NCBI GenBank assembly: GCA_016188705.1
Contig: JACPHH010000016.1
Span: 21,690-85,689, forward strand
Reading direction: 5' to 3'
Source: Candidatus Peregrinibacteria bacterium
GTDB lineage: Bacteria > Patescibacteriota > Gracilibacteria > UBA1369 > JACRIC01
DNA: 64,000 bases
The notes under the pieces are model-generated. The model did not search any database. It saw only the letters and a list, made by a program, of their open reading frames with translations, and had not been told where the DNA came from. Of this stretch, positions 9,769-63,603 are shown piece after piece. A program made the translations under genes and the position numbers. The first letter of the stretch is position 1; every line of letters starts with the position of its first letter.

Positions 9769-11190
9769 TTATAAGCCCATCTCTTTTTTAAGAGCATTCA
9801 TATCGCGCACCAAAGTAGTGCTTGTACGCAATTTTTTTATAATCATTTCACAACCATGAAGCACGGTCGTATGGCTGCGATTGCCAAAATCAAGACCAAT
9901 ATTTTCATAAGACCTTCCGAGTTCATGTCGAATAAGGTACATCGAAATCTGTCTTGGAAGCATGATCTCCTTGCGGCGCGACTCGCCAATGAGATCGCTT
10001 TTAGTTATTTTAAAATAATCAGCCACGATTTCGATAACATCTTCCGGAGCGCGAGCAATGGAACGATGAGCTGCTTGTTCATCAAAACCAGCCACGGGCT
10101 CATCTTTTGAAAGTTTTTTCAACAACAAACCGACGCTTCGTACGGTCGGCGTGCTATTTTCCAACTGCGCTTGAGCAATAGCCTGAAGAAGAACACCTTC
10201 AAGTTCTCGAATACTGTGATGCACATTAAAAGCAATAAATTCCAAAACTTCCGCGGGAATAATGGCGTTATGCTCGGGACATTTTGCATGGAGTATCGCA
10301 AGCCGAGTCTCATAATCAGGAAATTGAACATCCACTATCATACCCATCCCAAATCGACTCATGAGACGATCCTGGACGCCTTTGAGTTCCCGAGGAGGCC
10401 GATCCGAACTGATAATGATTTGCTTATTATTATCGTACAGCTCATTAAAAGTATGAAAAAATTCTTCCTGCGTCATTTCCTTATTTCCCAAAAATTGAAT
10501 ATCATCAATGATAAGACAATCAACCTGGCGATAACGATCCTTAAATTGTTTCGTATTTCTTCTTCCTATAGCCTCAACGATTTCATTCATAAAACGTTCC
10601 GCCGTAATATAGACGACAACACTTTCCGGAAAACGCTTTAAAATAGCATTGCCAGTTGCCTGCAAAAGATGCGTCTTTCCAAGTCCAACACCTCCATAAA
10701 TAAAAAGCGGATTATATTCCGAACCCGGCCGCGAGCAAACCGCAGAACAAGCGGCATGAGCCAAACGGTTATCAGGACCGACGACAAAATTTTCCAAACG
10801 ATAACGTTCATTCAAAAATTTACTTTGAACACCATCATGGGTAACGCGCATCACCGATTTATTAGGCAATTTTCGAATGGATTTTACAGGTTTTTCAACG
10901 AGTGTTTGAATATTAACCGCCCGTTCATCCTGACCAGCTTTTAAGCTGGACATAACGACATACTCAATCGATTCAATCTGAGGACGAATGCTTTTTATCG
11001 CGTCGATAATGAACTGATGATACTTTTTTTGAAGCCAGTCTTTCGCAAAAGGATTCGGCACGCCAACGGCAACCGTAGTATCGTTAACATCGAGAATAGC
11101 CGTGTCCTGAAACCATGTCACAAAATTAGAACGCTTGAGTTTCGGCTCAATAGAAAGGAGTACCTGTTTCCAAAATTCCAAATGATCCAT
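9769..11190 (-). CDS. dnaA: chromosomal replication initiator protein DnaA
   Basis: 473 aa. Walker A GGVGLGKTHLLQA, Walker B LIIDDIQFL, sensor and box VII blocks, and the C-terminal DNA-binding domain (ISMYLIRHELGRSYENIGLDFGNRSHTTVLH). Confidence 0.95.
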   Translation of the reverse strand: MDHLEFWKQVLLSIEPKLKRSNFVTWFQDTAILDVNDTTVAVGVPNPFAKDWLQKKYHQFIIDAIKSIRPQIESIEYVVMSSLKAGQDERAVNIQTLVEKPVKSIRKLPNKSVMRVTHDGVQSKFLNERYRLENFVVGPDNRLAHAACSAVCSRPGSEYNPLFIYGGVGLGKTHLLQATGNAILKRFPESVVVYITAERFMNEIVEAIGRRNTKQFKDRYRQVDCLIIDDIQFLGNKEMTQEEFFHTFNELYDNNKQIIISSDRPPRELKGVQDRLMSRFGMGMIVDVQFPDYETRLAILHAKCPEHNAIIPAEVLEFIAFNVHHSIRELEGVLLQAIAQAQLENSTPTVRSVGLLLKKLSKDEPVAGFDEQAAHRSIARAPEDVIEIVADYFKITKSDLIGESRRKEIMLPRQISMYLIRHELGRSYENIGLDFGNRSHTTVLHGCEMIIKKLRTSTTLVRDMNALKKEMGL

Positions 11191-14193: not shown

Positions 14194-14307
14194 ATCGATA
14201 TTTTTTTACGCTCTATATAAATCTACCTTACATTCATGAGCATACTAAATTTCGAAAGAGAAAATGTCAACGAAAGCAATAGGAGTTGTTCACCGCTTTT
14301 GTTGAAG

Positions 14308-14527
14308 CATACTCTTTTTCTTTTGAATACATATGCTGGCAGGCGGAAGTTCGGAGCGAGTTACTCAGGCTGGTTTTCAAAAAGAGGCGAAAATGAGCGT
14401 TAAAAAATGTGTAGCCGATAGCATTTTTAGCGAATTTTCGTCCTTTTTGATCCAGCCGAGTATCCGAGCGACGAGCCCCCGCCTCCCAGCATATGTACTT
14501 TTTTTCAAAGGAAAAAGCGTATGATCC
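14308..14527 (+). mobile_element. MITE-like palindromic element, copy 1
   Basis: Near-identical core to 24093-24317 (inverted) and 39596-39809. It has ~35 bp imperfect terminal inverted repeats and is flanked on both sides by TTTTGTTGAAG (14297-14307 and 14529-14539). Confidence 0.7.
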
Positions 14528-14606
14528 ATTTTGTTGAAGAAATGCCAAAATTTTAATTGACAATATGACATCAAATATTGTAAAATGAATAAATAAAAAC
14601 ATAATT

Positions 14607-23995: not shown

Positions 23996-24032
23996 GGATC
24001 ATGCGCATATTACTTTGAAAAAAAGTATGATC
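23996..24032. mobile_element. 37-bp internally deleted derivative (two termini only) of the MITE-like element
   Basis: GGATCATGCGCATATTACTTTGAAAAAAAGTATGATCC is the left terminus joined to the right terminus of the family. It is flanked by AAAAAC on both sides. Confidence 0.55.
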
Positions 24033-24092: not shown

Positions 24093-24317
24093 GGATCATA
24101 CGCTTTTTCCTTTGAAAAAAAATACATATCGCTGGGAGGCGGGGGCTCGTCCCTCGGATACTCGGCTGGATCAAAAAGGACGAAAATTCGCTAAAAATGC
24201 TATCGGCTACACATTTTTTAACGCTCATTTTCGCCTCTTTTTGAAAACCAGCCTGCGTAACTCGCTCCGAACCCCCGTCTCCCAGCATATGTTTTCAAAG
24301 AAATTTGCGTATGATCC
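24093..24317 (-). mobile_element. MITE-like palindromic element, copy 2 (inverted relative to copies 1 and 3)
   Basis: The reverse complement aligns end to end with 14308-14527 and 39596-39809. Termini are GGATCATACGC...GCGTATGATCC. Flanks GTAAAAT / GTAAAAAT are imperfect direct repeats. Confidence 0.7.
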
Positions 24318-24361: not shown

Positions 24362-25498
24362 ATGAATTCTAAAAACTTATCCATAACTCTTAAACACATT
24401 TTTCAAAAATTCTTGAGTATTATTTTTATCATTTTCACTGTGTTTTTTTTGTCGTATTACAAAAATGCAGTACTCAAAACATCCGCGATTGTTCATCAAA
24501 GGTACATCGTAAAAAAAAATACGCATATTTTAAAAAACATCACTCCTAAAAACAACATACCTGAAAAAACCAATCCTAAAACAGAAAAAAAAAAAAAATA
24601 ATCATAAAAAAAAAACAACAACAAAAAATCCACAAAAAAAAAAAATACAAAGAAAAAAAACAACAACAAATCGAAAACTCAAAAAAAAACCACGCAAATA
24701 GCTAAAAATGGAGATCTTTCGAACAAAATTTTTATAACGGAAATTTTTCCAAATCCGCCAGGTCCGGACACAGAAGAAGAATGGATCGAACTTTTTAACG
24801 CGGGAGACACAAAAATATCTCTCGGAAACTGGACTCTCGACGACAGCGAAGGCGGAAGCAAACCATACTCTTTTCCATTTACTACCATCATAAAACCTCA
24901 GGAATATCTTGTTATTTCAAGAAATATCTCGAAAATAGCGCTTAACAATAATCAAGAAAGCGTGCGACTCTTCGACTTTAAAAAAAATACAATAAACGAA
25001 ATCGAATATGAAGAATCCAAAGAAAACGCTTCCTTTTCACGAATTCATATATCTTCAACGGATGAAATCTGGGAATGGACAAACGACATTACCAAAGGAA
25101 AAAAAAATCCACAGTACGAAATATTTACGGGAAATATCCAACAATTTCAAAAAAACCCCTCAAATCCGGAACAAAACGAATTATTATTACAAACCAGTAT
25201 AGAAAAAATTGCGATATTTGTTTCCGACAGCATCGTTGAAACGGCTTTAGCGAAAACACTTTTCGTGCCGGAAACGAAAATAAAAATCATAGCGCAAGAA
25301 AAAAACCAAGGAAATTACGAATTAAAAAGCTTCGAAATACTCAAAAAAGCTCCTCCTCAAAAACAAAAAACGAGTACAGCCGCGACTCTTATAAAATGGA
25401 CTCTGCTTCTACTCGCAGGAGGAATATGTTTGAAAAAAATATGGTTTAAAAATAATCTTTGGGAAAAAATAAAAGCCTCTGTTATTTCAAAAAAATAA
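24362..25498 (+). pseudogene. TM-anchored Lys/Asn-rich linker plus lamin-tail-domain (LTD) protein, interrupted by two in-frame TAA codons
   Basis: ORF 24362..24601 (TM helix) and the LTD-coding segment (ITEIFPNPPGPDTEEEWIELFNAGDTKISLGNWTLDDSEGG...) are in the same frame. They are separated only by TAA at 24599 and TAA at 24605, inside A14/A10 tracts. The LTD part has no ATG/GTG/TTG start before 24962. Confidence 0.5.
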
Positions 25499-28731: not shown

Positions 28732-30027
28732 ATGAAAAACGAACCATACATATACATTCTCGGCCGAAAACCTCTTCTTTCTTTGGCCGAACTGCTGACA
28801 CAATTTCCTGATAAAGACATTCTCTCGATTCGACCGAAAACTTTTGTGTCGAAAACAAAAATTAATGATCCACAAGCCTTTCTTAACACTCTCGGAGGAA
28901 CCATTCGCGTTGCGAAAATATTTCATAAAGCGCAGAAAAAAAATGTAAAAAGTTTGGAAGCTGAAATTCCGAAATGGATTCCATTTTTAAAAAAATACTT
29001 TAAAGATCGGTTTAAATCGTGCGACGGAAAAATTCGTTTTGCCATGAATATTTACAACATACCGCATCCTCGTGAAATTTTTCTAAAAAAATTATTAAAT
29101 GAAGTAAAACGAAATTTAAAAGAAACAGGACTTAAGGTGCGTTTCGTAAATAACAATTTTAAAAATGTAGAAAGTGTCGTGACGTTAAAAGAAAAACTTA
29201 TTTCAAAAAAAGGCTGCGAGATAAATGTGATTGTAGGTGATAAATTTTTTCTCTTTGCGGAAACTGTCGCGGTTCAGAACGTGGACAAATACTCGGAACG
29301 CGACTATGGAAAACCCGCGAGAGACCCGAGAAGCGGCATGTTGCCGCCAAAACTCGCGCAAATCATGATCAATCTGGCAAAAACGAACGCGAAAGGTCAA
29401 AAAAATAAAATTGAATATGTGTACGATCCATTTGGCGGAACCGGAACGATTTTGATGGAATCGGCGCTTCAAGGCTTGCATGCGATCGGTTCAGACATTG
29501 ATAAACAGGCCGTGCAATATTCGAAAAAAAACATCGAATGGCTAAAAAAAGTGCATAAAATTGGAAGCAAACAAAAAATAAAAATAGCGACACTCGACGC
29601 GACCAAATTGACCGCCAAACAATTGAAAGAAAATATGTCAGTGAAACGGCTGGAAAAATTTGCCATTGTAACCGAGCCTTTTCTTGGACCTCCATTTTTC
29701 AGATTTCCACTTATGGAAAAACTTGAGGAGCACATGCGATTTCTTGACTATCTTTATACAAAATTTTTCGAACAAATGAAGGAAATTCTGCCAAAGGGCA
29801 CGATTATTATTTTTGTCATACCGGCTTTCCGTGATAAAACTCATGACATACGCATGGGAAAAACAGTTGAAAAAATTTGCAGCCTTGGCTATAGTGTCAT
29901 CGATCTGATTCCCGATCATGTCGCCAAAAAATACGAAATCGGAAAACCTGAAACGCCTTCCCTCCTCTACGACCGCAAAGATCAAATTGTCGCCCGAGAA
30001 ATCTATAAATTCGTAAAAAACACGTAG
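28732..30027 (+). CDS. class I SAM-dependent RNA (guanine-N2-type, Trm11/UPF0020-like) methyltransferase
   Basis: PARDPRSGMLPPKLAQIMINLA followed by VYDPFGGTGTILMES (motif I), IGSDID and the PFLGPP motif IV region. An N-terminal ~190 aa putative RNA-binding domain precedes these. Confidence 0.7.
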   Translation: MKNEPYIYILGRKPLLSLAELLTQFPDKDILSIRPKTFVSKTKINDPQAFLNTLGGTIRVAKIFHKAQKKNVKSLEAEIPKWIPFLKKYFKDRFKSCDGKIRFAMNIYNIPHPREIFLKKLLNEVKRNLKETGLKVRFVNNNFKNVESVVTLKEKLISKKGCEINVIVGDKFFLFAETVAVQNVDKYSERDYGKPARDPRSGMLPPKLAQIMINLAKTNAKGQKNKIEYVYDPFGGTGTILMESALQGLHAIGSDIDKQAVQYSKKNIEWLKKVHKIGSKQKIKIATLDATKLTAKQLKENMSVKRLEKFAIVTEPFLGPPFFRFPLMEKLEEHMRFLDYLYTKFFEQMKEILPKGTIIIFVIPAFRDKTHDIRMGKTVEKICSLGYSVIDLIPDHVAKKYEIGKPETPSLLYDRKDQIVAREIYKFVKNT

Positions 30028-30143: not shown

Positions 30144-30218
30144 TCCGGGGTAGCTCAATGGTAGAGCAACTGGCTGTTAACCAGTGGGTTGTCGGTTCGA
30201 ATCCGACCCCCGGAGCCA
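30144..30218 (+). tRNA. tRNA-Asn (anticodon GUU), CCA encoded
   Basis: Hand-folded cloverleaf. Acceptor TCCGGGG/CCCCGGA, D arm GCTC-AATGGTA-GAGC, anticodon stem ACTGG/CCAGT with loop CTGTTAA, T arm GTCGG-TTCGAAT-CCGAC, then G-CCA. Confidence 0.9.
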
Positions 30219-30267
30219 AATTGGAATAAATAAGCATGATTCAAAAAATTGTTATCTCTGTTTTGGA

Positions 30268-31491
30268 ATGTGGAAATCCCAAGACTGTCTTTATTGTCGA
30301 ATCTGCGATCAATCAAAATTCTGCGTTGATTGCGAAGGCGTAAAATTAGGTTCAGAGCTTGTATATGAAAGCGTTGACTCAAAACGCCTCTATCGTTGCG
30401 CTTTTCTGCAAAATTCCGAAAATTGCAATGATTGTTTTTTTGGATTTGATCTCAAGGGATGTAGTGATTGTAGCGCATGCGTGGGATTGCGACAAAAACG
30501 TTTCCACATTTTTAATAAACCATACTCAGAAGAAGAATATCGCAAACGCGTGGCGGAATTTAATCTAAGTTTCCGCTCGGGACTTAATGGATTGCATACA
30601 CAATTCATTCATTTCGCGCAAAACTTTCCTCGTAAAAATATGAATCTTCAAAATTGTGAAAATTGTCTTGGCGATCATCTTTTTAATTGTCGAAATGTTA
30701 TAGGATACGTGAGTACGAATTCCGAACATTCTCATTGGATTGAACGCTGCGACGGGCCAATATGGTGCTATGATCAAATTCAAAGCGGTTCTCCTGAACT
30801 TTGCTACGAATGCATAACCAACGATAATGGATACATGGTTCTTTTTTCTTTGTATTGCAATCAATCCCATTACACTTTTTATAGTGATAATTGTGTGCAT
30901 TGCGACAATCTTTTCGGATGCATTTCCCTGCGCAGAAAAAAATATTGCATTTTAAATAAGCAATATACAAAAGAAGAATATGAAAAACTCACAGGATCCA
31001 TTATTAAAAAAATGCAACAAGAAGGAATATTTGGTGAATTCTTTTCAATTGAAATGTCTCCCTATGGATACAATGAAACAAACGCGGCAGAATTTTTTCC
31101 TTTCACTAAAGAAGAAGTAATACAAAACGGATGGAAATGGCGCGATGATTTACCTTATACAACGGGAAAAGAAACACTTACCTCTCAAAATATTCCCGAT
31201 GATATTAAAAATGTCGATGATTCCATTTTACAAGAAATTCTTGCATGTGAGCAGTGTGGGAAAAATTATCGAATCATCCGTGAAGAACTTACATTCTATC
31301 GGTCGCTCGAAATACCAATTCCAGCGTATTGTCCTGATTGCCGCAACCGAAAACGCTTAAGTCGAAGAAATCCTCAACGGCTCTGGGAACGAATATGTAA
31401 AAAATGTAGAGAAAAAATGTTCTCTACATATTCGCCGGAAAAACCGGAAAATGTTTATTGCGAAAAATGCTATTTAAAAATTGTATATTAA
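30268..31491 (+). CDS. Cys-rich repeat protein with C-terminal zinc ribbons
   Basis: Repeated NCxxC...C.DC.xC units, and a C-terminal CEQCGKNYRII...FYRSLEIPIPAYCPDCR...CKKC...CEKC. The track ORF start (GTG 30184) lies inside tRNA-Asn. The first ATG is 30268, but the Cys pattern (KNCYLCFG) already begins upstream in frame. Confidence 0.6.
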   Translation: MWKSQDCLYCRICDQSKFCVDCEGVKLGSELVYESVDSKRLYRCAFLQNSENCNDCFFGFDLKGCSDCSACVGLRQKRFHIFNKPYSEEEYRKRVAEFNLSFRSGLNGLHTQFIHFAQNFPRKNMNLQNCENCLGDHLFNCRNVIGYVSTNSEHSHWIERCDGPIWCYDQIQSGSPELCYECITNDNGYMVLFSLYCNQSHYTFYSDNCVHCDNLFGCISLRRKKYCILNKQYTKEEYEKLTGSIIKKMQQEGIFGEFFSIEMSPYGYNETNAAEFFPFTKEEVIQNGWKWRDDLPYTTGKETLTSQNIPDDIKNVDDSILQEILACEQCGKNYRIIREELTFYRSLEIPIPAYCPDCRNRKRLSRRNPQRLWERICKKCREKMFSTYSPEKPENVYCEKCYLKIVY

Positions 31492-39564: not shown

Positions 39565-39595
39565 TTCAATGACAAAATTGCAAATTTTTTATTAA

Positions 39596-39809
39596 GGATC
39601 ATACGCAAATTTCTTTGAAAACATATGCTGGAAGGCGGGGGTTTAGGCAGGCTGGTTTTCAAAAAGAGGCGAAAATGAGCGTTAAAAAATGCGTAGCCGA
39701 TAGCATTTTTAGCGAATTTTCGTCCTTTTTGATCCAGCCGAGTATCCGAGCGACGAGCCCCCGCCTTCCAGCACATGTACTTTTTTTCAAAGGAAAAAGC
39801 GTATGATCC
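39596..39809 (+). mobile_element. MITE-like palindromic element, copy 3
   Basis: GGATCATACGC...GCGTATGATCC termini. A perfect 8-bp direct repeat, TTTATTAA, abuts both ends (39588-39595 and 39810-39817). It carries a ~10-nt internal deletion relative to copies 1 and 2. Confidence 0.75.
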
Positions 39810-39940
39810 TTTATTAAAAAAAATCGTTAAAACCTGAATTACTTGATTATTAAGAGAAAATTTATCATAATAAAAACCTGTCATTTATGAAAATTCATCG
39901 ATCATTCAATATTCTCGTTCAAAGTTTTTACTCGAATTAT

Positions 39941-44482: not shown

Positions 44483-44754
44483 TAAATATTATTTCGTTAT
44501 AAAAATGTGCTCGAGTAAACATTTATTAAAGATAAAAAAGTGAAGTCACTACTACAAATTGCTCGAGTAAATATTTATCAAAACTGAAAAAATGAAAAAA
44601 AATATACAAAAAATGCGAAAAAATATAAAAGTTAGGAAACACTAACTTTTTTATGCATTTAAAAAAATGGCTTATAATCTTGCCATTTTGCTATTGTATT
44701 TTTTGCACAATAATTCATAATAAAAATAGTTTTTATTTTTTAATACTCGTCACC

Positions 44755-55284: not shown

Positions 55285-55818
55285 ATGAACACAATAAAAT
55301 ACATTCAATTCAGTTTCGTTCTAATAATAATAGGAGCATCACTCCAAACAGCTTTCGCTACAAATGATACATTATTGACAATATCAAATGCCGTGGCAGA
55401 AACGTCTACTCCTTGCACTTCAACTGATCAGGGACTCTGCGTCGACCTTCGAGAGCCTTTAGGCGATCAGGGAACGATACGTGCTAATAGCGGCCTTGGA
55501 TTGGTACAGGAATACGTGAAAGCTATTTACCAATGGGCCGCGGGACTTATTGGAATCGTCGCGGTGCTTAATATGGTTATTGCCGGTATTCAAATAACAA
55601 CTTCCGCTGATTCAGAACGCGCCGCAAGCGCGAAAACTCGCATTATGCAATCGATCGCGGCCATTTGCGTGCTTTTCCTCTCAGGACTTATTCTCTACAC
55701 CATTAACCCAAACTTTTTCGTCACACAAACTATCACAAAGGAAGAAACAATAAATACACAAGCCGAGCCCAGCTCACCTAGTAATACTGGAAGAACCCAA
55801 GACACAACTCCTGAATAA
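55285..55818 (+). CDS. TrbC/VirB2-like T4SS pilin family protein (paralog 2)
   Basis: Same architecture: IYQWAAGLIGIVAVLNMVIAGIQITTSADSERAASAKTRIMQSIAAICVLFLSGLILY. Confidence 0.7.
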   Translation: MNTIKYIQFSFVLIIIGASLQTAFATNDTLLTISNAVAETSTPCTSTDQGLCVDLREPLGDQGTIRANSGLGLVQEYVKAIYQWAAGLIGIVAVLNMVIAGIQITTSADSERAASAKTRIMQSIAAICVLFLSGLILYTINPNFFVTQTITKEETINTQAEPSSPSNTGRTQDTTPE

Positions 55819-55836
55819 TAAAAAATTCTCGTTTGC

Positions 55837-56622
55837 ATGAAGTCAAAAACCATCACAATAAAAATCATAAATATCAGCACAATGTTCATCGTCAGCATAA
55901 ACACAATATTTATGCTGACGAGTCCCGTTTTTTCTACAAAAAATATCGTCTATGCAATGGATTCCACAAATCTCATTGTAGCGAATTCCATAGCAGCGAA
56001 TGCCATAAAACCCGATCTTCCGAGTAATATATTTCTTCCTCAACCAACTGACTCTCAAGCCAATTTTGAATACTTTGTCGATACCTTTCTTCCAAAAATT
56101 TTTGGTTGGTTCATCGCAGCAATCGGAGTTTTCGGACTGATATTTATTCTCATCGGAGGCATAGAATTTTTAACTGCCTACGGAAACGATCAAAACATTG
56201 AAACCGCCAAAAAAACCGTACAAAACGCCGTCATAGGAACCGTTATCGGACTCCTTTCCTATAGCATCGTACTCGCTATAAACAACCTTTCATCCTATTT
56301 TAATTCGATAGAAAATCAACCTCCAACAAATCCCCTCAATCCACCACCCTCCGGAACATTTGATAAAGTACCAAAGGGAGACCTTTTTAAAGATACCGCG
56401 CCAGGAATAATTCGAATTATTCTTGAAATCACGGGATACCTGCTTTTTGCTGCCATCGTAGTGGCGGCAATTATGCTTATCACCGCGAGAGGAAAAGAAG
56501 ACGGCCTGAAAAAAGGGAAAGAAATTCTGAAATACAGCGTCATGGGTCTTATTATTATCGCGATTGCTTACGCTGTTATTTACGGCGTTGCCTCGCTTGA
56601 CTTCTTTAATCCCATCGGATAA
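55837..56622 (+). CDS. TrbC/VirB2-like T4SS pilin family protein with a duplicated pilin module (paralog 3)
   Basis: Two helix-loop-helix modules: FGWFIAAIGVFGLIFILIGGIEFLTAYGNDQNIETAKKTVQNAVIGTVIGLLSYSI, and IILEITGYLLFAAIVVAAIMLITARGKEDGLKKGKEILKYSVMGLIIIAIAYAV. Confidence 0.7.
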   Translation: MKSKTITIKIINISTMFIVSINTIFMLTSPVFSTKNIVYAMDSTNLIVANSIAANAIKPDLPSNIFLPQPTDSQANFEYFVDTFLPKIFGWFIAAIGVFGLIFILIGGIEFLTAYGNDQNIETAKKTVQNAVIGTVIGLLSYSIVLAINNLSSYFNSIENQPPTNPLNPPPSGTFDKVPKGDLFKDTAPGIIRIILEITGYLLFAAIVVAAIMLITARGKEDGLKKGKEILKYSVMGLIIIAIAYAVIYGVASLDFFNPIG

Positions 56623-58683: not shown

Positions 58684-58766
58684 ACGATGAACTTACTGTA
58701 AAAACCGCATCTAGGTCAAGAGTCTACAAAGTAGCTCGCCAATTTGCGCATGATCCAGTTTCCTCT

Positions 58767-59844: not shown

Positions 59845-60489
59845 TTACAAACGTTTATAAGTTCGTGAAGAAAGAGTAGTTTGAAAATCAAGTCTCATAT
59901 TTCCAGATCGAAATGGCGTTTTTGGCCGAAGAGTGATGAAAATTGTTACTCTGGGTTGATACTGAACCTCATTTTTCGACACATTTTCGCTTTGATACGG
60001 ATCAGCGACAGGAGTTATAAGAAAAGCCAACCGTTCAACCACAATGGAATCACGGCTTAAAACGGCAAATCCATCAGAAAAATCCGAAGCATCACGCCAC
60101 GTCCCATCATCTGACTCAATTTGCCGGACAAAACGAAGCGCATTTTCCTCATTTTTTTGAAAAATAACGCGCTGCCCCTCAGGAAGCCGAATAGCCAATG
60201 TATTATCAACAAAACCATTATTTTCATCGAGTTTCTGGCTCTCGCAGTTCGAATCACCGTAGCACGAATAATCTATGGTGCCAGCTCGTATATTCTGACT
60301 CATAAAACCCAGAAGATACTGAGCTTCCTGATACATAAGGCGTTCTTCATTCGCGGAACGAAAAGCTCGAGCCAAAAAAAGACCTGAAGAAAAAACCACG
60401 GCAATAAAAATCACAAAAACAATCATCGCGATAGTAAGTTCAATAAGCGTAAAACCGGCATGAATTTTAAAATTTTTAGAAGTAAACAT
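59845..60489 (-). CDS. prepilin-type N-terminal cleavage/methylation domain protein (minor pilin)
   Basis: MFTSKNFKIHAG-FTLIELTIAMIVFVIF class III signal. The track ORF start is 60510. Confidence 0.8.
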   Translation of the reverse strand: MFTSKNFKIHAGFTLIELTIAMIVFVIFIAVVFSSGLFLARAFRSANEERLMYQEAQYLLGFMSQNIRAGTIDYSCYGDSNCESQKLDENNGFVDNTLAIRLPEGQRVIFQKNEENALRFVRQIESDDGTWRDASDFSDGFAVLSRDSIVVERLAFLITPVADPYQSENVSKNEVQYQPRVTIFITLRPKTPFRSGNMRLDFQTTLSSRTYKRL

Positions 60490-60513
60490 ATGCATGAAAG
60501 TTTCAAACAATAA

Positions 60514-61218
60514 TTAAAGGAGACTGCCTTTCCAATCGGTCAAAAACATTTCTAAACTGAGTTTTCTTGTCCTTCCGCGTTCATTCCATTGAACGATACT
60601 TTGAATACGGGCTAAAGCGTTATCTTTGCCTTCAAGCGGAAAAAATTCAACCATGATATATCGAAAAAACTTACTTTTTGTATCATCCGCGTCAGTTTTT
60701 CCAACAAGATACTGAACGATTTCACGCTCCGTTCCTTTGAAAAGAATATGTTGATAGAGAGAAAGTTTTTCGAGATCAGACGCTTGGAGATTTTCAAAAT
60801 TACGCGGATCAAAATCCAAACATTGAAGCATCCATGGATTAAAATTCATATTTTCACCCACGGGTTTATAATCAGGATTGAAAAAAATACGATAAAACGA
60901 AATATTTTCTTGTTGAAAAGAGCAAGTATCGTGCTCAAACGGACTGCTCGGATTAAAGGAAAGACCAACATTTTCAGAATATCCGGTCCAAGAAAAATTG
61001 GAAAGCCAGTGGGAATCACGAATATTACGAAAAGCCTCAATCCCCTCTTCAGCCAATCCATAAGCCAAAAAATTATTAATATTTGCCTGATTGGCGCGCA
61101 AAGCCGAAAGAATCAAACCTGCGAGCGCGGCAAAAGCCACCGTGAGCACTGAAATGCTCATAAGTACTTCCGCGAGAGTAAAACCTGAATTATTACTTCG
61201 TCCTTTATATTCGATCAT
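60514..61218 (-). CDS. prepilin-type minor pilin (PilV-like)
   Basis: NNSG-FTLAEVLMSISVLTVAFAAL leader and N-terminal helix. Confidence 0.8.
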   Translation of the reverse strand: MIEYKGRSNNSGFTLAEVLMSISVLTVAFAALAGLILSALRANQANINNFLAYGLAEEGIEAFRNIRDSHWLSNFSWTGYSENVGLSFNPSSPFEHDTCSFQQENISFYRIFFNPDYKPVGENMNFNPWMLQCLDFDPRNFENLQASDLEKLSLYQHILFKGTEREIVQYLVGKTDADDTKSKFFRYIMVEFFPLEGKDNALARIQSIVQWNERGRTRKLSLEMFLTDWKGSLL

Positions 61219-61874
61219 AAAAATTTTTGAATCATCATTCTTCCTGTAAGTGGCTCAAGAATAATCTTTTTTTTCAATGAATCACTCGTGCCGTACCTCA
61301 CAAAAAACATGGCCTCGGCATTTCCGGAACGAAGAGCTGTAAATGTATTTCCATCATACCCAAAAATTGAAAAATCGCCATGAGGAGGCGCGAATAAAAC
61401 CAAAAAATACTGATAAAAAATGCCAGAAAATTGAAAATCCGTCATTTCAATACGATCTCCAAAAAAAGTACTCACGGACGAAAAATCAATCGACTCAATC
61501 GATTCAATATCGCAAACAGGAAATGAATTGGATTGAAAAGCAGTACTGACAATTTTGACATCTTGAGGATTCAATTGAATTCCAAGACAGCGAACCTCTT
61601 TTGTGGATTCAACAGGAGCTCCAAGCCCCATTTGCTGATTGACATCATTTTTCTGATTCACATATCGATAACCGCTCTGAATGCGAGTACGAAGCGACGT
61701 AAGAGTGGCGACCACGGAATGAGCTCCAACATCCAGCCGAGCTCGAGCCACATAATCTTGAGTGAAAAAAAGAAGAGCGGAAACAAGAATAAGAATAATC
61801 GTAATGACCACAACAAGTTCAACAAGCGTAAACCCTTTTTTTAAATAAGGAAACCCTGATACATATGATTTCAT
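61215..61874 (-). CDS. prepilin-type minor pilin (FimT/GspH-like)
   Basis: YLKKG-FTLVELVVVITIILILVSALL leader and N-terminal helix. It overlaps the downstream gene by 4 nt. Confidence 0.8.
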   Translation of the reverse strand: MKSYVSGFPYLKKGFTLVELVVVITIILILVSALLFFTQDYVARARLDVGAHSVVATLTSLRTRIQSGYRYVNQKNDVNQQMGLGAPVESTKEVRCLGIQLNPQDVKIVSTAFQSNSFPVCDIESIESIDFSSVSTFFGDRIEMTDFQFSGIFYQYFLVLFAPPHGDFSIFGYDGNTFTALRSGNAEAMFFVRYGTSDSLKKKIILEPLTGRMMIQKFL

Positions 61875-61890
61875 AAAATTTTCAAAAAAA

Positions 61891-63075
61891 TTATACCAAA
61901 CTGCTCAAAGAAAAAATGGGGGCAAGCAAAGCTAAAGCGACAAAAAGCACACCCAAGCCAACAATGACAATAAGTACCGGCTCAATGAGAGAAGTAACTT
62001 CCTGAATGGAGTGAATAACTTCCTGTTCATAATGTTTCGAAACTTTTTCAGCGGCCTGATCAAGAGTACCGGCTCGCTCTCCAATATCAAGAACCGCCGA
62101 AACAATGGAAGGGAAAAGAAAAGAGCTGGACTCAAGACCGGGAACGAAACGCTCTCCATGTCGTATTTTCCAGTCAACTTCGCGTAATTTTCGTTTATAA
62201 ACATCGTTACCAGCCGACCGAATAAGAATCTCCGAAACTTTAATCATGGAAAGACCAGACGTAAGAAGAACGGAGAGAAGTCTTAAAAGTCGAGCAAGAA
62301 TAATTTTTCGCTTCAACATGCCAAAAAATGGAAATCGTAATTGAAACATATCAAAACGAAATTTTCCTTCTTCCGTAGAAATATAAAACTGAAAAAAAAC
62401 ATGCAAGGAAATAAACGCGAAAATCAGCGTCCACCAGTAACTTGTCATAAAATTGCTCACGCGAATAAGGATAATCGTGATAAAAGGAACTTCCGCGTTA
62501 TTGAGAGTAAAAAATTCCATCAAGTTCGGCACCACGAGAGTAACAACAACCAAAATCGCTATAAAAAGCACAATAAGAACCATCACCGGATATGTCAGAG
62601 CCGAACGAATCTTCAGCCTCAATGTATAATCATCTGCCACTTGTTGAGAAAGTCGTTCAAACATTTTTTCCAGATTACCCACGGTTTCGCCGCTTCTCAC
62701 CACTTCCACTTCTCCTTCGTGAAACACGTCAGGAAAACGCGCCATGGCATCGGAAAGATTTTTCCCCGCGTCAACATCTCGCGCAGCGGTTCCAAGAACG
62801 CGTTTAAAACGCGGCGTTTTAAGTTTTCGCGCCAAAATATGCAAAGCCTTGACTATGGAAACACCTGCGTCAATCATCACGGACATCAGATGAAAAAAAT
62901 ACGCTTTTTCTTTTAAAGAAACACGACTGCGATCAATAAAAAAATCTTCCAATCTTTGAAAAAATGATCGATAATGTTCTTCTCCTGATCCATAAACAAA
63001 AATAGGCTCTGAATCTTCAGTGAGAGTAAAGCCCTCAAGCAAACGATCCTTCTTTTCACTCTCGGAAAAGTCCAT
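61891..63075 (-). CDS. pilC: type IV pilus platform protein PilC (GspF family)
   Basis: 394 aa with two GspF repeats (LSDAMARFPDVF..., FPSIVSAVLDIGERAGTLD) and three TM segments. Confidence 0.9.
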   Translation of the reverse strand: MDFSESEKKDRLLEGFTLTEDSEPIFVYGSGEEHYRSFFQRLEDFFIDRSRVSLKEKAYFFHLMSVMIDAGVSIVKALHILARKLKTPRFKRVLGTAARDVDAGKNLSDAMARFPDVFHEGEVEVVRSGETVGNLEKMFERLSQQVADDYTLRLKIRSALTYPVMVLIVLFIAILVVVTLVVPNLMEFFTLNNAEVPFITIILIRVSNFMTSYWWTLIFAFISLHVFFQFYISTEEGKFRFDMFQLRFPFFGMLKRKIILARLLRLLSVLLTSGLSMIKVSEILIRSAGNDVYKRKLREVDWKIRHGERFVPGLESSSFLFPSIVSAVLDIGERAGTLDQAAEKVSKHYEQEVIHSIQEVTSLIEPVLIVIVGLGVLFVALALLAPIFSLSSLV

Positions 63076-63084
63076 AAAAATGGG

Positions 63085-63603
63085 TTATGAACTCTGATAA
63101 TACGATTCCATGCGAAGGTGAAAAGTGCTTGAGCCATCATCATGGCGTTCAATTTGCATGGTTTTGACCCGTATAATGCGGTGTTCTTCTTCCAAAGCCT
63201 TTAAAAAGGCCAAAAGATCAGAAAAACTCCCCTGAAAACTCGAAGAAATTGAAAGAATTGCGACCCCCTCAATAAAATCTTCTCCGAGAGTAAAATTCAT
63301 ATCTTGAAACGTAATATGAAATCGAGAAGCCAAAGTATCAAAAAGTCGCACAATCCGATCCTGTTCGCTTTGAGCCGGCACTTGAGCCAGAATGAGCTGG
63401 CGTGAAGCCTTATCTTCGGGAAAAGATATTTTAAGAGCTTCCAATTCCTGCGCTTGTTTTTCAAGTTCCTGAATTTCCTTCTGCCGTTCGTCGCGTTGAG
63501 CAGTAAGACTATCAATTTTCGTTTGAACAGGACGGATATAAAATACCCACAAAGCAACAATAACAAGAAGGAGAAAAAGAGTGAAAATTCGCGTTTTTTT
63601 CAT
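63085..63603 (-). CDS. pilO: PilO-like pilus assembly protein
   Basis: 172 aa. N-terminal TM helix, a coiled coil (QRDERQKEIQELEKQAQELE) and a ferredoxin-like C-terminal domain. Its position between pilN-like and pilC genes supports the call. Confidence 0.6.
   Translation of the reverse strand: MKKTRIFTLFLLLVIVALWVFYIRPVQTKIDSLTAQRDERQKEIQELEKQAQELEALKISFPEDKASRQLILAQVPAQSEQDRIVRLFDTLASRFHITFQDMNFTLGEDFIEGVAILSISSSFQGSFSDLLAFLKALEEEHRIIRVKTMQIERHDDGSSTFHLRMESYYQSS

Follow-up and report, generated by a model that had tools for sequence, protein, structure and literature searches.

A probable MITE family dispersed through a Candidatus Peregrinibacteria genome

Results

The DNA examined here, referred to as the window, is a 64,000-nucleotide stretch of contig JACPHH010000016.1 from a Candidatus Peregrinibacteria bacterium. 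It contains three full copies of a repeat, 214–225 bp in length and 91–95% identical to one another, together with one 37-bp deletion derivative and one possible solo end. The positions of these features, with the genes adjoining each full copy, are given in Table 1. Each of the three full copies is situated between divergently transcribed genes.

Table 1. Repeat copies, their component parts and neighbouring genes in the window
Feature	Coordinates	Strand	Remarks
Copy 1 of the probable MITE, ~220 bp	14308..14527	+	Read-through ORF is P0006
Genes next to copy 1			pyrH-like kinase (-); CBM96 protein (+)
Internal-deletion derivative, 37 bp	23996..24032	+	E 2.6e-4 and 1e-3 against the two ends of copy 2
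Copy 2 of the probable MITE, 225 bp	24093..24317	-	Read-through ORF is P0001
Genes next to copy 2			RNase Y (-); ORF without assigned identity (+)
Left target-site duplication of copy 3, TTTATTAA	39588..39595	.	Adjoins left TIR; same as 39810-39817
Copy 3 of the probable MITE, 214 bp	39596..39809	+	Orientation "+" defined as L-type end on the left
Left TIR of copy 3, L-type, GGATCATACGC AAATTTC TTTGAAAA	39596..39621	+	11-nt core at 39596-39606
GC clamp of copy 3, 5' arm, GCTGGAAGGCGGGGG	39627..39641	+	Position 6 (39632, alignment A3 column 37) is A
GC clamp of copy 3, 3' arm, CCCCCGCCTTCCAGC	39758..39772	+	Position 10 (39767, alignment A3 column 182) is T
Right TIR of copy 3, R-type, minus-strand reading GGATCATACGC TTTTTCC TTTGAAAA	39784..39809	-
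Right target-site duplication of copy 3, TTTATTAA	39810..39817	.	Directly after right TIR
Genes next to copy 3			296-aa ORF (-); HlyD/MacA-like gene (+), followed by ABC and MacB/FtsX genes
Possible solo-end remnant, AATTTGCG(c)ATGATCC	58741..58756	-	L-type end, 15/16 positions

Copy 3 is bounded by terminal inverted repeats (TIRs) whose cores, GGATCATACGC (39596-39606) and GCGTATGATCC (39799-39809), are complementary at 11 of 11 positions, and the extended arms pair over approximately 26 nt save for a 3-nt AAA/AAA internal loop. Within the window the TIR core occurs seven times at no more than one mismatch, against 0.67 occurrences expected from shuffles. An earlier note on this DNA had described an 8-bp target-site duplication at copy 3, and this was confirmed, with TTTATTAA abutting both TIR ends and matching at 8/8 positions; an estimate from base composition puts the chance of such an in-register 8/8 match in AT-rich intergenic DNA at ~2e-5 to 2e-4. 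The duplicated target is itself AT-rich. The same note's description of the interior of copy 3 was likewise borne out. The GC clamp forms 15 bp with perfect complementarity, in which pair 6:10 is A:T where copy 2 has G:C, and the 10 nt missing from a side loop belong to a segment that the consensus fold leaves unpaired.

A GATC site is present in each TIR core (39597-39600 and 39804-39807, in the context G-GATC-AT) and a third is internal (39725-39728). GATC sites in the ends of some IS elements tie transposition to Dam methylation, and an ORF with a DNA methylase domain is found at 28732-30027; any link between the GATC sites of this element and that ORF, or Dam, is pure speculation.

Over the full length of copy 3, identity to copy 2 is 91.6%. 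The TIR cores of copy 2 are perfect at both ends, with the flanking duplication degraded to GTAAAATAT / GTAAAAATC, a 5/8 in-register match. Read in the same orientation as copy 3, its clamp arms are GCTGGGAGACGGGGG and CCCCCGCCTCCCAGC, and clamp pair 9:7 is an A·C mismatch. For copy 1 the identity to copy 2 is 95.3%, measured over 212 nt. The left TIR of copy 1 lacks the first 4 nt (GGAT), both of its ends bear the R-type spacer (TTTTTC), and its clamp has C·C at pair 6:10 plus two other A·C mismatches. The flanks of copy 1 carry an 11-nt direct repeat, TTTTGTTGAAG, at 14297-14307 and 14529-14539 with a one-base offset, which does not fit a clean 8-bp duplication; among the three full copies a clean 8-bp duplication is thus present only at copy 3.

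In the 37-bp derivative, which sits 60 bp from copy 2, a segment of approximately 31 nt from one end meets the terminal 6 nt of the opposite end at a shared GTA. The presence of two insertions within 100 bp suggests a preferred AT-rich target. The match to AATTTGCGcATGATCC at 58741-58756, between a metG-like gene and the next ORF, is possibly a solo-end remnant or may be a chance match, and constitutes weak evidence. A long intergenic tract of A-rich, low-complexity sequence was also observed at 24585-24674.

When the read-through ORF of copy 2 was used as a protein query, 14 "hypothetical proteins" were retrieved, all from one Candidatus Peregrinibacteria MAG (locus tags HYV57_) and including the window's own three copies (P0001, P0006 and P0013), which places the window on a 90,385-bp contig of that MAG. 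Four further ORFs, again from this MAG, came from a profile search covering 1.84 billion representative proteins; P0019, also returned by the profile search, was a spurious repeat protein. The total of 18 read-through ORFs (P0001-P0018) is spread over at least 12 contigs of this single MAG, which is probably of modest size, with locus tags running to at least HYV57_05650. These data show a dispersed element, of which a single Candidatus Peregrinibacteria genome contains at least 18 copies or derivatives. Two of the ORFs, P0016 and P0017, are internal-deletion forms with the junction at a repeated KFA codon triplet. ORFs crossing the element gave no Pfam match and their frames are disrupted by indels between copies, and the element is therefore read as non-coding. 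The 18 NCBI "hypothetical proteins" (e.g. MBI2463332.1, MBI2463465.1, MBI2463744.1 and MBI2464413.1) are annotation artefacts produced by read-through of the repeat.

Several of the 18 repeat ORFs are annotated as partial at contig ends, indicating that the repeat breaks the assembly, and it also fragments short-read assemblies. Both flank-TIR junctions of copy 3 recur in Logan contigs (run SRR12113422), which end 29–30 nt inside the repeat, the expected behaviour for a multi-copy repeat; another ends 29 nt inside the 37-bp derivative. Up to each element break the Logan contigs are identical or nearly identical to the window, with one mismatch in 2,172 nt for contig L001. Since these junctions are independent of the MAG, the copy 3 insertion is not a MAG-assembly artefact, and an artefact of that kind was ruled out by their recurrence in the Logan assembly.

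No relatives outside the MAG were found among ~15 billion predicted proteins, GTDB representatives, JGI metagenomes, IMG/VR, plasmids and phages. A TIR-plus-gap pattern gave nine matches in the GTDB representative genomes searched, a set that does not include the HYV57_ MAG; these were in unrelated taxa, with blastn similarity limited to 11-mers, and were attributed to chance. The 26-nt TIR pattern had no matches in JGI metagenome contigs or IMG/VR viral contigs. Of 77 pattern matches from an ORF-alignment search of metagenome contigs none was confirmed, the opposite-strand read-through frame gave no matches as a protein query, and blastn against plasmids and phages gave no meaningful match.

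The element is ~69% identical to its own reverse complement, an imperfect palindrome from end to end, and either strand consequently folds into a single long hairpin. The RNA fold of copy 3 has an energy of -110.8 kcal/mol on the + strand (z -12.8 against shuffles) and -100.8 kcal/mol on the - strand (z -10.8), and the fold with DNA parameters one of -62.5 kcal/mol (z -10.5). Consensus fold energies of the copies are -128.7 and -108.5 kcal/mol, leaning to the + strand. The earlier note had refrained from assigning an orientation, and that position stands, as the lean in consensus energy and the tally of five G·U pairs on the + strand against one or two on the - strand are too small to fix the transcribed strand. 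A hairpin spanning the whole element is typical of MITEs and is not by itself a sign of an RNA gene; any palindromic MITE has such a hairpin automatically, with no need for separate selection. At both gathering and permissive thresholds no Rfam family matched the element, the best sub-threshold match over it reaching 21.9 bits against a gathering value of 35.2 (E 0.14), and only three tRNAs passed in the window.

Copy 3 ends 31 nt upstream of the ATG of the 296-aa gene, and the sole promoter-like site aimed at this gene lies at 39893-39864, beyond the copy. From this arrangement copy 3 is probably located in the 5' leader of the 296-aa gene and would probably be transcribed, from the minus strand, as a leader hairpin. 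Strong promoter-like sites lie outside copy 1 on both sides, placing it between two core promoters. The insertions lie in promoter regions and may alter the expression of pyrH, the RNase Y gene and the macAB-like transporter operon. No consensus promoter or terminator was detected inside any of the three window copies. A role as a carrier of a bidirectional terminator or promoter was rejected on this ground and on the location of all copies between divergent genes. Copies 1 and 3 face one way and copy 2 the other, and the element therefore has no fixed orientation toward its neighbours.

Discussion

The segment at 39596-39809 most probably belongs to a family of non-autonomous DNA transposons of the MITE type, a reading to which we assign a probability of about 85%. 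Features that typify bacterial MITEs and were found here are a length of 214–225 bp (MITEs being shorter than ~400 bp), lack of a transposase gene, TIRs, a target-site duplication at copy 3, many dispersed copies, internal-deletion derivatives and a very stable full-length hairpin. In the proposed mechanism, the GGATCATACGC-type ends would be bound by a DDE-type transposase whose gene lies elsewhere in the genome or has since been lost; this enzyme would cut AT-rich intergenic DNA with an 8-bp stagger and insert the element, and gap repair after insertion would then give rise to the TTTATTAA duplication. An 8-bp duplication fits several DDE families. No transposase Pfam domain was found in window ORFs of at least 150 aa, and the search for an autonomous IS with matching TIRs returned none in the window, only chance matches in GTDB representatives and none in JGI metagenomes or IMG/VR. 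An empty site was not found in related genomes or alternative contigs, and for this reason mobility is a deduction. An element of the REPIN or IS200/IS605 hairpin type, mobilised as single-stranded DNA by a Y1 (RAYT/TnpA) transposase, would also be present as a long hairpin in many copies, and compensatory changes are common in REPINs. This origin is nevertheless very improbable, as elements moved by Y1 transposases produce neither TIRs nor an 8-bp target duplication, both of which are present here, and as the element has no REP-like doublet of short GC palindromes and a Y1 transposase domain is absent from the window ORFs searched.

The exchange of G:C for A:T at clamp pair 6:10 had been taken in the earlier note as a demonstration of selection on the secondary structure, and a covariation test was proposed there. 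Such a check, performed with RNAalifold and column shuffles on the three DNA copies, gave a background level of covariation and leaves the claim unsupported. The consensus comprises 82 pairs, of which 68 are invariant, one (37:182) is compensated, four show a one-sided wobble and nine are broken. The covariation term is +2.23 kcal/mol, a penalty, and 151 of 500 column shuffles matched the observed covariation score, a comparison of low power given three DNA copies, with other copies available only as nucleotides inferred from amino-acid changes. When changes were placed at random, a double hit arose with P ~0.015 for copy 3 alone and ~0.12 for any of the three copies, values that are if anything underestimates because both changes are C-to-T-type transitions, the commonest class. 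The remaining copies were followed by threading their translations on copy 2 DNA and keeping those amino-acid changes explicable by a single nucleotide change. On these inferred nucleotides, P0005 (WK...ASQ) has T at column 182 while column 37 remains G, which makes the pair G·T in the + orientation. K is likewise present in P0017, where column 182 is therefore T and the partner arm is deleted, and in P0014 (WQ) column 182, on the 3' side, is G, with the partner outside coverage. Elsewhere, P0004 is altered at both partners of another pair, T:A becoming C·T without restoration of pairing, and in P0005 an unchanged C faces a G-to-T change. Pair 37:182 thus exists in multiple states across copies, which marks it as a tolerant or mutable site and not as evidence of a maintained helix, and the difference between A:T and G:C at pair 6:10 is most simply explained as two C-to-T-type transitions at a variable pair.

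These observations bear on a rival reading, which is unlikely, in which transposition has spread a selected structured RNA that makes up the element or is carried by it, for example a cis-regulatory 5'-leader hairpin or a processing site for RNase III or RNase Y. That the A:T/G:C exchange reflects RNA-level compensation through a G·U intermediate on the + strand is equally hard to credit, even though there is one genuine double change, the P0005 state can be read as the G·T intermediate in the + orientation, and the + strand has the more G·U pairs (5 against 1-2) and folds 10–20 kcal/mol better. The unusual conservation of the central 90 nt, the position of all three copies upstream of genes, with copy 3 in a likely 5' leader, and the compensatory changes reported for bcr1 and REPIN repeats are also in keeping with a structured RNA. 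Against this are set the covariation, which is no better than the control, and the unfavourable RNAalifold term, the nine pairs broken outright in one copy, the C·C at pair 6:10 of copy 1 and the double change in P0004 that leads to a mismatch. Moreover, inverted copy 2 makes the orientation to neighbours inconsistent, there is neither an Rfam match nor a promoter inside the element, and the copies are all paralogues in one genome, so that what they have in common stems from recent amplification and not from long-term constraint. The conserved central ~90 nt (39660-39749; A3 columns 65-154) contains one of the 22 substitutions among the three DNA copies. Over 14 read-through ORFs the corresponding peptide KFAKNAIGY.FFNAHFR is near-invariant, in contrast to the arms and side loops, which are variable and contain indels. 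This pattern is not predicted by a pure model in which only the ends matter and leaves some room for a constrained core. It is quite unlikely that the module is a functional RNA or protein-binding DNA hairpin riding the transposon, with pair 6:10 having passed from G:C through G·U to A:U on the + strand; were it so, a MITE would have been domesticated in a CPR bacterium of reduced genome, serving as a regulatory hairpin dispersed upstream of genes.

Within the MITE reading, and compatible with it, the paired changes may have a different source. Both the double change and the closure of the AAA loop by TTT might have been made by templated repair from arm to arm, mimicking compensation without selection, which we regard as conceivable but somewhat doubtful; the same degree of doubt attaches to the route, either correction of the quasi-palindrome in a DNA hairpin or a swap of the two ends. 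Templated mutation in quasi-palindromes is established. Copy 1, with TTTTTC at both ends, has three adjacent changes that turn the AAA/AAA loop into pairs, and P0007 and P0008 read ...MYSKEKAYDP, the same end type as copy 1. The ends of these three copies look like one arm copied from the other, or two like ends, and not like three selected mutations. For pair 6:10, however, the G·T intermediate in P0005 better fits two separate point mutations than a single event, and most mismatches in the hairpin have been left uncorrected.

The element matches the published definition of bacterial MITEs. A close counterpart is Chunjie of Geobacter uraniireducens Rf4, summarised as 178–235 bp long and A+T-rich, with 21-bp TIRs, 9-bp direct repeats and a hairpin of dG about -98 to -130 kcal/mol (PMC3184786). 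By that description the two resemble each other in size class, A+T-richness, TIRs of ~20 bp, flanking direct repeats, overlapping ORF calls and a very stable full-length hairpin, -100 to -129 kcal/mol in the present element. The likeness is one of features, no similarity of sequence being expected, and the hosts (Desulfobacterota versus CPR/Peregrinibacteria) and the direct repeats (9 bp versus 8 bp) differ. Correia/NEMIS elements of Neisseria are likewise short, intergenic, palindromic MITEs, the hairpin of which is often co-transcribed with neighbouring genes, and have a conserved 26-bp TIR, but they also have a TA duplication, a length of 100–155 bp, known promoter boxes (-10/-35) and an IHF site, and none of these last four is seen in this element. 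The bcr1 repeat of the Bacillus cereus group is also mobile, ~155–220 bp long and flanked by direct repeats, and compensatory changes have been reported for it. It differs in having 5-bp direct repeats, a cruciform of two stem-loops and known transcription, whereas the present element has one long hairpin, 8-bp repeats and covariation that is not significant. REPINs (REP doublets, Pseudomonas) share the character of hairpin-forming miniature mobile DNA with changes on both sides of the arm, but are RAYT-dependent and lack the target-site duplication and DDE-type TIRs present here (TIRs with an 8-bp duplication).

To our knowledge, bursts of mobile elements have seldom been described in small, streamlined CPR genomes, and no publication on MITEs in CPR came up in a limited literature search. 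Read as a MITE, the element represents a new family of a well-known type, apparently genome-specific, in a CPR bacterium with a reduced genome, and the finding leaves the understanding of MITEs unchanged.

Other features of the window

A dnaA gene encoding DnaA N-terminal, ATPase and C-terminal domains is located at 9769-11190 (-). Cumulative GC skew declines across the whole window with no switch, and no origin signature was seen. A 435-aa ORF without a Pfam match (30184-31491) has its longest call starting inside a tRNA gene (30144-30215), indicating that its true start lies further downstream. An intergenic tandem pair of 52-nt units, 73% identical, is found at 44508-44611. A type IV pilus/T2SS-like cluster at 52349-53395, 55285-56622 and 59845-63603 encodes a T2SSE ATPase, T2SSF, PilO/T2SSM and three N-methyl pilin-like ORFs, next to which are two T4SS_pilin-domain ORFs.
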